Assembly (NCBI RefSeq): GCF_988243305.1
Contig: NZ_OZ547136.1
DNA length: 64,000 nucleotides
Reading direction: 5' to 3' (one strand)
Shown here: positions 8,452 to 63,573 of the stretch, piece after piece
How the letters are laid out: every line of letters begins with the position of its first letter
Numbering within the stretch: the stretch's first letter is position 1
Made by a program: the position numbers and the translations under genes
Notes under the pieces: generated by a model
What the model was told of the DNA's origin: nothing
What the model saw: only the letters and a program-made list of their open reading frames with translations
Database searches by the model: none

Positions 8452-9888
8452 TCAACGTTTGTAACCCCCGCCCAACGCACCAGTGAGTTGAATGGAGGCA
8501 TCCAGCCACTGCCCTTGCAATAACAGGCCATTGGCCCGCTCACGCAGCGCGGGGATTCTGGCTTCGCTGACGCGGGAACCCGCAATGATGCCCGCGTTAA
8601 AGCGCGCCTGCGCAAGACCTACTACACGCAAGGCATCGCGCTCAATTTGCGCCTGATGCTGGTTTTTCTCCGCCAGTGTCTGAACCTGACTAGCTGCCCG
8701 CGCCACGTCATTCACCGCTTCAACCACCGCTTTGTTGTAGCTGGCGATAGACAAGTTGCTTTCGGCTTTTGCGATATCGAGGTTGGCGTTAAGACGGCCA
8801 CTATCGAAAATGGGTAGCGTCAGGCCTGCCGTAACGCCCATTTGCTGCGCGGAATGACGGAACAGATCGCTTAAGTGCAACGCATCCTGTTGCAGGAAGG
8901 CCATCAGGTTGATGTCAGGATAAAATGCCGCTTTTGCCGCATCAATAGTGCTTAACGATGACTCAACGTACCAGTGCGCCGCCTGCAAATCTGCCCGCCG
9001 GGCCAGTAAGGAGTACCCCAGTTCATCAGGAAGCTGGCTTGCCACTTTCGGCAACGCGACCGGATTAAGCTTCAATGCCTTTGTCTGGTGATTTGTAAGT
9101 GCGCTTAACCGTGCCTCAATAATTTTCATTTTCCCCGCGACATCGTTGAGCTGCTGCCGGGTTTTGCTGGCATTAATATCGGTTTCCACACCTTCAACTG
9201 AAGAAGTAATCCCGTTCTGATATAGCTGGCGATCGGTGGCGATAATGGTGTTCTGCTCTTTTTCGATTTGCTGTAAGACAGTGTTTAACGCCGCCTGGGT
9301 TTGCCACTCCCAGTACAGGCGGGCTACGCTGCCAGCCAGCAATTGGCGGGTTTGCTCGCGTTCCGCCGCTCGTGCTTTAACCGTACCCAGGCGAGCAGTA
9401 ACCTCCGCCCGATTCTTTCCCCAGATATCGAGATGCCAGCCCGCCGTTAAGCCAAAAGTACCGTTGGTGTACCACGGACCGGTCGTACCTGCGGCAGGAT
9501 CGTTCAGAGCAAACGGCCCCATTAACCCTTCTGCCGACATTTTTTGCCGCTCCATATCCGCAGAAAAGTCGATCTGCGGACCATCCTGAGTGGCAACTGC
9601 CTTCGCCTGGGCTTCAGCCAGCTGAATGCGCTGTTCAGCCACCTGCATATCCGGTGCGTTCTGTAGTGCATTGTTAATTAAGGAAGTGAGCTGATTATCG
9701 TGATACTTCAGCCACCATTGGCTGTCTGGCCAACCATTTTTCAGCGCCGTGGGTAATGCGGTGTCAACTTGCACAGCGGGCGTTTGCTGGCTTAACGCCT
9801 GGCGGGTTTCATGCATAGGCGCACACCCGGCCAGCATCAGTAACAGCGGAAAACAGGCGATGGCGGGATAAAAGGAATCACGATTCAT
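8452..9888 (-). CDS. mdtQ: Outer-membrane efflux lipoprotein (OprM/NodT family); reads as an intact 478-codon ORF here
   Basis: Product MNRDSFYPAIACFPLLLMLAGCAP... (lipobox LAGC), uninterrupted to ...LTGALGGGYKR; outer membrane factor family by similarity. Confidence 0.8.
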   Translation of the reverse strand: MNRDSFYPAIACFPLLLMLAGCAPMHETRQALSQQTPAVQVDTALPTALKNGWPDSQWWLKYHDNQLTSLINNALQNAPDMQVAEQRIQLAEAQAKAVATQDGPQIDFSADMERQKMSAEGLMGPFALNDPAAGTTGPWYTNGTFGLTAGWHLDIWGKNRAEVTARLGTVKARAAEREQTRQLLAGSVARLYWEWQTQAALNTVLQQIEKEQNTIIATDRQLYQNGITSSVEGVETDINASKTRQQLNDVAGKMKIIEARLSALTNHQTKALKLNPVALPKVASQLPDELGYSLLARRADLQAAHWYVESSLSTIDAAKAAFYPDINLMAFLQQDALHLSDLFRHSAQQMGVTAGLTLPIFDSGRLNANLDIAKAESNLSIASYNKAVVEAVNDVARAASQVQTLAEKNQHQAQIERDALRVVGLAQARFNAGIIAGSRVSEARIPALRERANGLLLQGQWLDASIQLTGALGGGYKR

Positions 9889-10111
9889 GGGGGAATAATC
9901 AGGTAAGAAAAGGTGCGCGGAGATTACCGTGTGTTGCGATATATTTTTTAGTTTCGCGTGGCAAAACATCAGTGGCAATAATATGACATATCCAGAAAAA
10001 TATACACTAAGTGAATGATATCTTCCGATTTATCTTAATCGTTTATGAATAACGGCAAAGGGCTTCGTTTTTTCCTATACTTATTCAGCACTCACAAATA
10101 AAGGAACGCCA

Positions 10112-10195: not shown

Positions 10196-10447
10196 AATTA
10201 ATTAATGTCATCAGATCCGAAAATAACGAGAATATTTCAGTCTCTCATCCTGTTGCGCTCCTGTCATGTGCATTGCTTCATATAATCACTGGCGCAAGGA
10301 GCGCGCAGGGGGCGACCAATCGCCGCTGCGCGGTGCCCTCGGCTTATCCCTTACGGCTACCGGGTCGGCGATTTTGACGCCACCAAACAACCGTGCGGCC
10401 TATTGATAAAGAGCTAACACATTGTCAAAAAACATCACTATGGTTTT

Positions 10448-17514: not shown

Positions 17515-17575
17515 AGAGACGCATCCGGCATTTGGCACCGATTGCCGGATGCGGCGCATCCGGCAATACCCACAT
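17515..17575. repeat. REP element between preA and mglC
   Basis: gcatccggcatttggcaccgattgccggatgcggcgcatccggcaat palindromic units. Confidence 0.6.
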
Positions 17576-25614: not shown

Positions 25615-27594
25615 TCAGAAGCGATAATCCACTGCCATAAAGTAACGACGTCCGTCTTCGTTATAGCTGTAGTCGTCACGACTGAGATCCTTGTCGCCAA
25701 GGTTCAGCACGCCTGCGCGCAGTTTGACGTCTTTAGTCACCTGCCAGGCCGCACCGGTATTCCAGATGGTATAACCGCCCGGTGTTTTAGCCGTCGCGCT
25801 GTCGGCGCGTTTCTGCCCGGTATAGTGACCAGAAACATAGAATGACCAGTCTTCCAGCGCCAGCGGTTTCCAGTCCAGCGTACCGTTAGCGGTATGGAAC
25901 GGCAGATCGGATAAAGGTTTATTTTCGCCGTTGCTGACATCACGACCATCGTTGTAGGTGTAGTTGAGTGACAGTTTCCATTCATCGTTGAACGGAATTT
26001 TCAGTTCGGTTTCCACGCCCTGAATACGAGCTTTGTTAACGTTGTAGTAGCTAAATACCGGCACACCGTTCGCTGTAAAACCAACAAAGTTTTGGTAGCC
26101 TGGTGCAGCATTGACGTCAGACGTACGGCTGATGCTGATACGATCTTTCACATCGTTACGGAAAACGGTAACGCTGGATTCAACCCCTTCCAGCCAGCCT
26201 TCTTCACCCATGTAGTAAAGCCCCAGCTCCCAACTTTCGCTCGTTTCTGGTTTCAGATCCGGGCTACCCACAATCTTACATGCGCCACGGCAAGAATTGC
26301 TCGTCCAGTCAGGGCTAAGTTGCAACAGAGAAGGTGCTTTAAATGCCGTCGCCCAGCCCCCTTTTACCGTTACGGTGTCGGTGGCGTTATAAACCAGGTA
26401 GGCACGCGGACTCCAGTGTTCACCGTAGGTTTCATGATCGTCCATACGTACGCCGGTCGTCAGCGCCAGCGGCTCGAAGATCCGCCATTCATCTTCCACA
26501 AACAGCGCGTACTGGCTGGCAGACGTTTTGGAGCTGGTTCCCCCAGTCAGGTTCACCGCATCGCTAAGTTTGTCGTGACGCCATTCACCGCCAACCGTGA
26601 GAAACTGATTAATCGCCGTCAGCGGCAACGTGTATTTGCCGTCGACCGTATTGCTTTCGGAAGTTATCGGGCTGCTGTTGCCAGGGTTTTTGTTCTCGAC
26701 TTTCTCACCGTAGTATTTCAGTTCGCTGGTGCCGTAATCCCAACGCCCATTATGGCTGACGGATTAGTTCTGGCGTTCCAGGCGGTTTTTGTCCAGCGAG
26801 TCGGAATCACGATCCTGACGGTCGAAACCGTATCCGGCAGTAAAATCGTGATTTTGATTCGGTGTCCAGGCAAATTCGACATTGCCGTCGCGGCTGGAGA
26901 ATCCTTCAATACGCGGCGTTTCTCCGGTATCGGTGGTCGTTGAGTTTTGCGGGTCATCCTTTTCACGTTTTGCCAGGCTGCCGTAAGCTTTCATTCCCAG
27001 CACACCGTCAATTAATGGTCCGCTGGTAAAGAACTGACCGTTATAGGTATCACCGCGATCGCGATGTTCCTGAATGGTGGTATCGACGGTAACGGTACCC
27101 GACCATTTCTGACCGATTTTTTTGGTGATGATATTCACTACACCGCCGAGCGCATCGGAACCGTACAGCGACGACATCGGGCCACGGACCACTTCAATAC
27201 GTTCGATGGAATCGACCGGGATCCAGTTCAGATCGAAATCATTGTGGCGGAAGACGGCATTGCGGGAGTTAACGCGTTTACCGTCGACGAGAATCAGGGT
27301 GTAGCTGCTGTCCAGACCACGAATACTAACGCCCTTACGGTTATCCCCTTCGTTCGTCAGTTGTACGCCAGGCACTTCTTTGAGGACATCCTTCAGATTC
27401 TGTACCGGTTTTCGCTGCAGGTCTTCCTGGGTAATGACGCTGATACTGGCAGGTGCATCTTTAAGGTTTTGTTCAACGGAAGATGCAGTGACAACCATCG
27501 TTTCGCCATCATCATCGACCGCTAACACAGGCCATGCACAAGAAATAGCGGACAAACACAGCCCGACCCGTACGAAAGGGTTCAACCTAAACAT
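25615..27594 (-). pseudogene. cirA: TonB-dependent catecholate siderophore / colicin Ia-Ib receptor CirA, interrupted by an in-frame TAA stop (plus-strand tta at 26764-26766)
   Basis: N-terminus [35 protein letters not shown]... (signal peptide, TonB box) runs to ...DKNRLERQN, then TAA; the same frame continues without further stops ([21 protein letters not shown]...) to the TonB-dependent-receptor C-terminus ...[11 protein letters not shown]. Confidence 0.8.
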
Positions 27595-27762
27595 TCCATA
27601 TCTCCATGAGGTAACTACGAAAATAAAATGGGTATCGCTCACATCTTCTTTACGTCCCCTTGCGTACGGCAGCATCGCGGTGGACTTATTTGTATGCAGG
27701 TGATCATCCCAGAAAGCCGGAACAGCCTCTGATTTGTCAGCCTTTTTTGATTGCGGCGTAAC

Positions 27763-27787
27763 GATAATGCAAACGATAACAATTATC
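27763..27787 (-). promoter_or_regulatory. Fur box in the cirA upstream region
   Basis: gataatgcaaacgataacaattatc resembles the Fur consensus GATAATGATAATCATTATC. Confidence 0.5.
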
Positions 27788-27840
27788 AATCCAAATGATA
27801 AATTTTATATCCGCATGATTTGTCAGGGAAATGGAATTGA

Positions 27841-27864
27841 AAAAGCCCTCTCGGTTGAGAGGGC
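27841..27864 (-). terminator. Intrinsic terminator downstream of lysP
   Basis: gccctctc-ggtt-gagagggc hairpin followed by a T-run on the minus strand. Confidence 0.7.
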
Positions 27865-27885
27865 TTAGCAAGGAAGGGAGGAAAC

Positions 27886-63180: not shown

Positions 63181-63573
<393 letters not shown>

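Follow-up and report, generated by a model that had tools for sequence, protein, structure and literature searches.

The window, a 64-kb stretch of E. coli chromosome, is colinear with K-12 from osmF to yejK and carries cirA, the gene for the catecholate siderophore and colicin I receptor, on the minus strand between lysP and yeiG. K-12 and E. coli AST215 share the gene order yeiE, lysP, cirA, yeiG, folE with the window. The cirA frame runs from an ATG at 27594 (MFRLNPF...) to a TGA at 25617-25615 (...AVDYRF), and its 659 sense positions include exactly one internal stop, a TAA located directly after ...DKNRLERQN (Table 1). In precursor numbering, this codon corresponds to Tyr277, which is Tyr252 of mature CirA. 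Past codon 277, the same frame continues for 382 codons with zero additional stops. The initial annotation had placed a single nonsense codon at about codon 277, with about 380 open codons beyond it and 659 codons in the read-through product. The frame, the coordinates, and the length agree with our translation, and the open part counts exactly 382 codons. In the list of open reading frames (ORFs), cirA is broken in two, a 5' ORF ending at 26764 and a downstream ORF of 337 aa starting with TTG. This split explains the two adjacent 'TonB-dependent receptor' genes obtained from gene callers.

Table 1 Features of the cirA locus, with positions in the 64-kb window.
Feature	Position	Strand	Basis or remark
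cirA pseudogene (catecholate siderophore / colicin I receptor)	25615..27594	minus	659-codon allele, one internal stop
Premature ochre stop TAA, codon 277, next base T (TAAT)	26764..26766	minus	plus-strand tta
Translated 5' part, codons 1-276: signal peptide, TonB box, plug, first barrel part including loop 2	26767..27594	minus	translation
Signal peptide, codons 1-25	27520..27594	minus	predicted cleavage, from the mature start of 2HDF
TonB box ETMVVTA, residues 31-37	27484..27504	minus	read from translation
Plug domain, Pfam PF07715, residues 44-152	27139..27465	minus	Pfam on intact AST215 allele
Untranslated 3' part, codons 278-659 and TGA: about 80% of barrel, loops 7 and 8, ...AVDYRF	25615..26763	minus	translation and Pfam
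Loop-8 segment, residues 505-514	26053..26082	minus	4 residues shorter than K-12 GFETGANGRRIPVF
Mechanical downstream ORF, TTG start, 337 aa, without signal peptide	25615..26628	minus	ORF list
cirA promoter / 5' leader (lysP-cirA intergenic region)	27595..27885	minus	291 bp
Fur-box-like 19-mer GATAATTGTTATCGTTTGC	27769-27787	minus	candidate, by eye, 13/19 to consensus

As the comparison set for cirA, we used complete E. coli genomes (n = 5,426), and the 1,980-bp frame matches an annotated cirA in 5,425 of them. The closest intact allele is that of AST215, which shares 99.6% nucleotide identity with the window and likewise has 659 codons. The identity of the gene is supported by the score of this near-identical allele on the NCBIfam CirA equivalog NF007478 (1444 bits), and the conceptual read-through product shows 98.8% amino-acid identity to K-12 CirA. 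Base-by-base alignment reveals TAC (Tyr) at codon 277 in AST215 and TAA in the window. The lesion is one C-to-A transversion on the coding strand, that is, G to T at plus-strand position 26764. The nearest allele and the other complete genomes, which also read TAC at this codon, bear out the earlier suggestion that the TAA lies one base from a Tyr codon. In total, 9 of the 1,980 nucleotides differ from AST215, namely the nonsense change and 8 others, and the alignment contains no indel; neither a frameshift nor an indel plays a part in the interruption. The first 276 residues are identical between the two alleles, and codons 278-659 show six synonymous changes and one non-synonymous change. 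This lone downstream non-synonymous difference is private to AST215, whose CirA departs from the conceptual read-through product at residue 277, where it has Tyr, and at residue 645, where Ser takes the place of Asn. No extra decay is visible in the 382 downstream codons relative to AST215. Since cirA carries no second lesion, the nonsense change seems to be a recent event. We are highly confident that cirA here is a genuine, recent loss-of-function allele in an otherwise ordinary E. coli chromosome.

If the TAA were a sequencing or assembly error, the isolate would truly carry TAC and an intact cirA. A one-base difference is the smallest possible error, and the 61-mer centred on the stop has no exact match in the complete E. 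coli genomes, with at least one mismatch in all 5,422 matching genomes, none of which has the TAA. However, the same base is present in the Logan assembly of run ERR15423954 (locus L005), which agrees with the window at every base of a 10,831-bp stretch that includes the TAA; this assembly was produced independently, though possibly from reads of the same isolate. The stop lies in the context AACTAATCC, which contains no homopolymer and no repeat, and the identical change is found on other haplotypes from unrelated runs. Moreover, nonsense alleles of cirA are found frequently, and consensus assemblies seldom contain substitution errors. We consider an error at this base very unlikely. The exact 276-aa product is encoded on 95 public contigs, found in NCBI nr (HBN2696293.1) and in Logan assemblies; the Y277* allele is not new, being already in public sequence data. 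In the literature, a search for 'Y277' with cirA found no relevant mention of a stop at codon 277.

The translated part of the gene keeps the N-terminal features of a TonB-dependent transporter, namely the signal peptide, the Plug domain PF07715, and ETMVVTA, the putative TonB box. The mature chain of 2HDF begins at precursor residue 26. In the intact allele, the Pfam barrel spans residues 221-632, and the stop cuts it after about 56 of its about 412 residues; Plug is the sole family recorded for the 276-aa product. These boundaries are as the initial annotation had predicted, with the signal peptide and plug retained and most of the barrel gone. On NF007478, for which the curated whole-protein cutoff is 745 bits, the 276-aa product scores 610 bits over profile positions 1-276 and the 337-aa downstream ORF scores 721 bits, both below the cutoff. 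The locus is cirA by descent, yet no encoded polypeptide qualifies as CirA, and none of the products of the window's cirA has an uninterrupted plug followed by all 22 strands of the barrel and a terminal aromatic residue.

The colicin I receptor structures 2HDF, 2HDI, and 9NN6 align end to end, and precursor residue 277 corresponds to chain position 253. In the cryo-EM study of the receptor, colicin Ia and microcin V (MccV) share one Cir pocket consisting of R116 in the plug, R436 in loop 7, and R490 in loop 8; R490A abolishes binding, and MccV requires loops 7 and 8 (PMC12511343). The residue numbers in that study are precursor numbers. All three Arg residues are encoded by the window's cirA, and R436 and R490 are located downstream of the stop and are untranslated. 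In comparison with intact K-12 CirA (P17315; 2HDF, 2HDI, 9NN6), the window shares the synteny, the TonB box, the plug, and the codons for R116, R436, and R490, whereas its gene is interrupted at 277 and its loop 8 is shorter by four residues. Without the C-terminal Phe, loops 7 and 8, and some 80% of its barrel, the truncated product is almost certainly non-functional.

The shorter loop 8 accounts for the length of the frame. K-12 cirA has 663 codons, and its loop-8 sequence GFETGANGRRIPVF spans precursor residues 505-518. The short form of loop 8, which is without R513 and R514, is also present in the intact AST215 allele, and cirA is at least 99% identical to the window's allele in 279 of the 5,425 complete genomes (~5%). 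Judging from these alleles, the difference between 659 and 663 aa is a natural four-residue polymorphism of loop 8 and not a lesion. The initial annotation had wondered whether a small indel or imperfect recall lay behind the two lengths; both lengths were right, and the difference reflects neither a lesion indel nor faulty recall. We also considered whether the short loop 8 removes the contact residue R490. This was rejected, since R490 is retained (ISR490TSD) and the indel takes R513 and R514. R513 is only a predicted minor contact of microcin V (PMC12511343).

Upstream of the gene, cirA is under Fur control (PMC3879352), and a candidate Fur box is visible in the promoter region (Table 1). 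Three positions in this region differ from K-12, AST215, and the Logan loci: A to T at 27798, just upstream of the Fur-box-like sequence, G to A at 27651, and a 1-bp deletion at 27633/27634 in the leader. These changes were examined as possible private extra damage and rejected, since the 291-bp region is 100% identical in six complete genomes, including LR778147, in which cirA is annotated as a normal CDS. The three changes are lineage polymorphisms, as the identical genomes indicate, and not additional lesions.

The rest of the window resembles an ordinary E. coli chromosome. In a tblastn comparison with 58 K-12 proteins, 55 of the 55 other K-12 genes that lie wholly in the window are full-length and stop-free, and cirA alone contains a stop. 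No IS elements were found in the window. A Shigella-like or generally decaying genome was rejected on these grounds, with 55 other genes full-length and colinear. The locus is only 98.2% identical to that of K-12, the sole phylogroup-A reference compared. Over 24-kb segments, the best identity among the 5,426 complete genomes is 98.9% for positions 14000-38000 and 99.6% for 40001-64000, and the best-matching strains differ between the two segments. It appears that either the lineage is absent from the complete E. coli genome set or the region is a recombination mosaic.

Several other differences from K-12 were observed in the window. The mdtQ gene (8452-9978, minus strand), a pseudogene in the annotation of K-12 MG1655, has an open frame throughout in the window. 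The ORF list gives it 508 aa with a TTG start, although translation probably begins further in, at MNRDSF.... Ribosomal protein L25, encoded by rplY (63289-63573, plus strand), differs from that of K-12 at I40V, A52V, and Q87L, and the gene has one synonymous change. The idea that this rplY allele is unusual was rejected, since many complete E. coli genomes carry it with 100% identity, which makes it a common natural variant. Compared with K-12, the window lacks about 120 bp between yohP and dusC (~10329-10365) and about 170 bp between preA and mglC (~17555-17570). These missing intergenic stretches are probably small repeat elements that are present in K-12 and absent here.

The following course of events would connect the nonsense change with a loss of the receptor. 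The C-to-A transversion converts the Tyr277 codon TAC to the ochre codon TAA. Under iron limitation, transcription of cirA would go on from a Fur-regulated promoter that appears intact, translation would stop behind residue 276, and the signal peptide would export a fragment in which the plug is followed by only the beginning of the 22-strand barrel. Since the fragment is without the C-terminal beta-signal, assembly into the outer membrane would not be possible, and the fragment would presumably be degraded. Such a fragment cannot fold into a barrel, and unassembled pieces of outer-membrane proteins are usually broken down in the periplasm.

This course of events would not apply if the stop were read through or suppressed, by an ochre suppressor tRNA or by leaky termination, so that enough full-length CirA is made. 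The downstream 382 codons are undamaged, and a full-length protein would be functional if made, although the intact downstream sequence is equally expected of a recent mutation. The 64-kb window contains no tRNA gene. In addition, the TAA is followed by T, and TAAT is a strong terminator in E. coli at which read-through should be negligible; ochre suppressors are rare in natural isolates. Rescue of full-length CirA in this manner seems extremely improbable.

The codon-277 stop is one of many truncations of cirA in public sequences. Among the loci with the exact 276-aa product, TAA at codon 277 occurs on four cirA haplotypes, the first shared by the window and L005 and the others represented by L006, L003, and L008. 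Locus L004 has TAG at codon 277, and an 8-bp deletion creates a TAG in L007. All of these loci were chosen by querying the exact 276-aa product, and their apparent convergence on codon 277 is an effect of this selection. Two further loci, L009 (GCA_021501335.1, DAFMLF010000027.1) and L010 (human gut metagenome ERZ920202), end inside codon 277 (...AACTA and ...AACT, respectively). Their 'partial' 276-aa products are most likely an artefact of the look-up by exact product; alternatively, the contig ends may reflect within-sample polymorphism that breaks the assembly graph.

To place the 95 contigs of Y277* in context, ten other stops on the same N-terminal sequence were counted. The numbers of contigs were 271 for Y98, 191 for W124, 156 for Y144, 195 for W164, 436 for Y184, 41 for Y204, at least 1000 for W243, 27 for Y255, 66 for Q260, and 109 for Q275, and some of these counts include clonal expansion and partial genes at contig ends. 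Codon 277 was considered as a mutational hotspot and rejected, since all ten comparator stops at other Tyr, Trp, and Gln codons were found, on 27 to at least 1000 contigs. The 242-aa product of W243*, carried by at least 1000 contigs, goes under the names 'colicin I receptor [Shigella flexneri]' and 'E. coli MS 69-1', which suggests that W243* is a cirA pseudogene fixed in large clones. Disruption of cirA is recurrent across E. coli, and codon 277 is one ordinary site among many.

A similar picture is obtained from the downstream side of the stop. The public collection has 1,185 blocks in which the exact, allele-specific 337-aa downstream product is indexed, and this ORF adjoins N-terminal fragments of 242, 259, 262, 284, 293, and 301 aa, although this range of 242-301 aa is an artefact of querying with the 337-aa ORF. 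The lesions behind these fragments are W243*, Q260*, a +1 insertion, W285*, a 5-bp insertion, and others. Shorter products of 60-143 aa, from stops upstream of or within the plug, are as frequent as later truncations.

These distributions bear on whether the 276-residue fragment could itself be active. Exported with its plug and TonB box and strongly induced at low iron, it might compete for TonB and dampen other TonB-dependent uptake. The signal peptide, the TonB box, and the whole plug are kept, the promoter appears intact, and in many of the split cirA alleles in public data the truncation falls downstream of the plug. However, the clustering of N-terminal fragments after the plug arises from the choice of query, and the equal frequency of truncations before or inside the plug indicates that the plug is not being preserved. 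Unassembled fragments are also usually degraded in the periplasm. We consider an active fragment highly improbable. If such a TonB decoy existed, a cirA nonsense allele would give broader tolerance to bacteriocins, phages, and siderophore drugs than a clean deletion.

For a cell without CirA, the published knockouts point to resistance to colicins Ia and Ib and to microcin V. The MG1655 ΔcirA strain is resistant to colicin Ib and is complemented by plasmid-borne cirA (PMC3879352). Resistance of a strain with Y277* to colicins Ia and Ib is well supported by such ΔcirA data. One of three catecholate uptake routes would also be lost, leaving FepA and Fiu, and the entry of cefiderocol would be reduced, with clinical relevance mainly in combination with NDM-type enzymes and PBP3 insertions. 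In a Chinese collection of carbapenem-resistant isolates, 22 of 26 cefiderocol-resistant NDM-5 E. coli had a stop codon in cirA, and complementation with wild-type cirA lowered the cefiderocol MIC 8-16-fold; deletion of cirA raised the MIC 64-fold in an NDM-5 isolate and left it unchanged in ATCC 25922 (PMC9241927). European ST167 isolates combine a cirA frameshift with NDM and a YRIN insertion in PBP3 (PMC12457464). In both studies, cirA stop codons contribute to resistance to cefiderocol, and the resistance genotype joins loss of cirA to the metallo-beta-lactamase NDM and a four-residue PBP3 insertion (YRIN or YRIK). The effect of Y277* on cefiderocol would depend on the background (NDM, PBP3 insertion) and may be nil in a strain without a carbapenemase or PBP3 change. 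The initial annotation had expected both colicin resistance and reduced uptake of catechol-conjugated drugs; the first is in line with the ΔcirA strains, and for the second the effect on the cefiderocol MIC depends on the background. ftsI and any plasmids, which would show the NDM and PBP3 status, lie outside the 64-kb window.

Compared with known cases, the window's allele resembles the premature-stop and frameshift alleles of cefiderocol-resistant, NDM-producing E. coli such as ST167 (PMC9241927, PMC12457464) in gene, species, and type of truncation by point mutation, and the same loss of an entry route would be expected; in the ST167 isolates of PMC12457464, however, the lesion is a frameshift at residue 90 and not a stop at 277, and the genetic background is different. 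Other natural cirA nonsense alleles of E. coli and Shigella, such as W243*, share the N-terminal sequence, the single-base mechanism, and the split-gene annotation. W243* differs in the affected codon and is apparently fixed in large clones. Y277*, by contrast, has a sporadic occurrence, with its 95 contigs spread over several haplotypes, and unlike Shigella the window is without other gene decay or IS elements. As in the laboratory knockouts (MG1655 ΔcirA, PMC3879352; C7310 ΔcirA and ATCC 25922 ΔcirA, PMC9241927), no functional receptor is expected. Those strains carry engineered deletions, whereas the window's allele could make a 276-aa fragment and can revert by a single base.

Y277* is a known kind of event, and it is of practical use solely for flagging the genotype of this isolate, for which it predicts resistance to colicins Ia and Ib and to microcin V. 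One entry route for cefiderocol and other catechol-conjugated beta-lactams would be lost, which would merit attention if the strain also had a PBP3 insertion and an enzyme of the NDM type. All of the one-step nonsense sites tested in cirA already have representatives among public sequences, and this fits recurrent loss of the receptor in natural E. coli.
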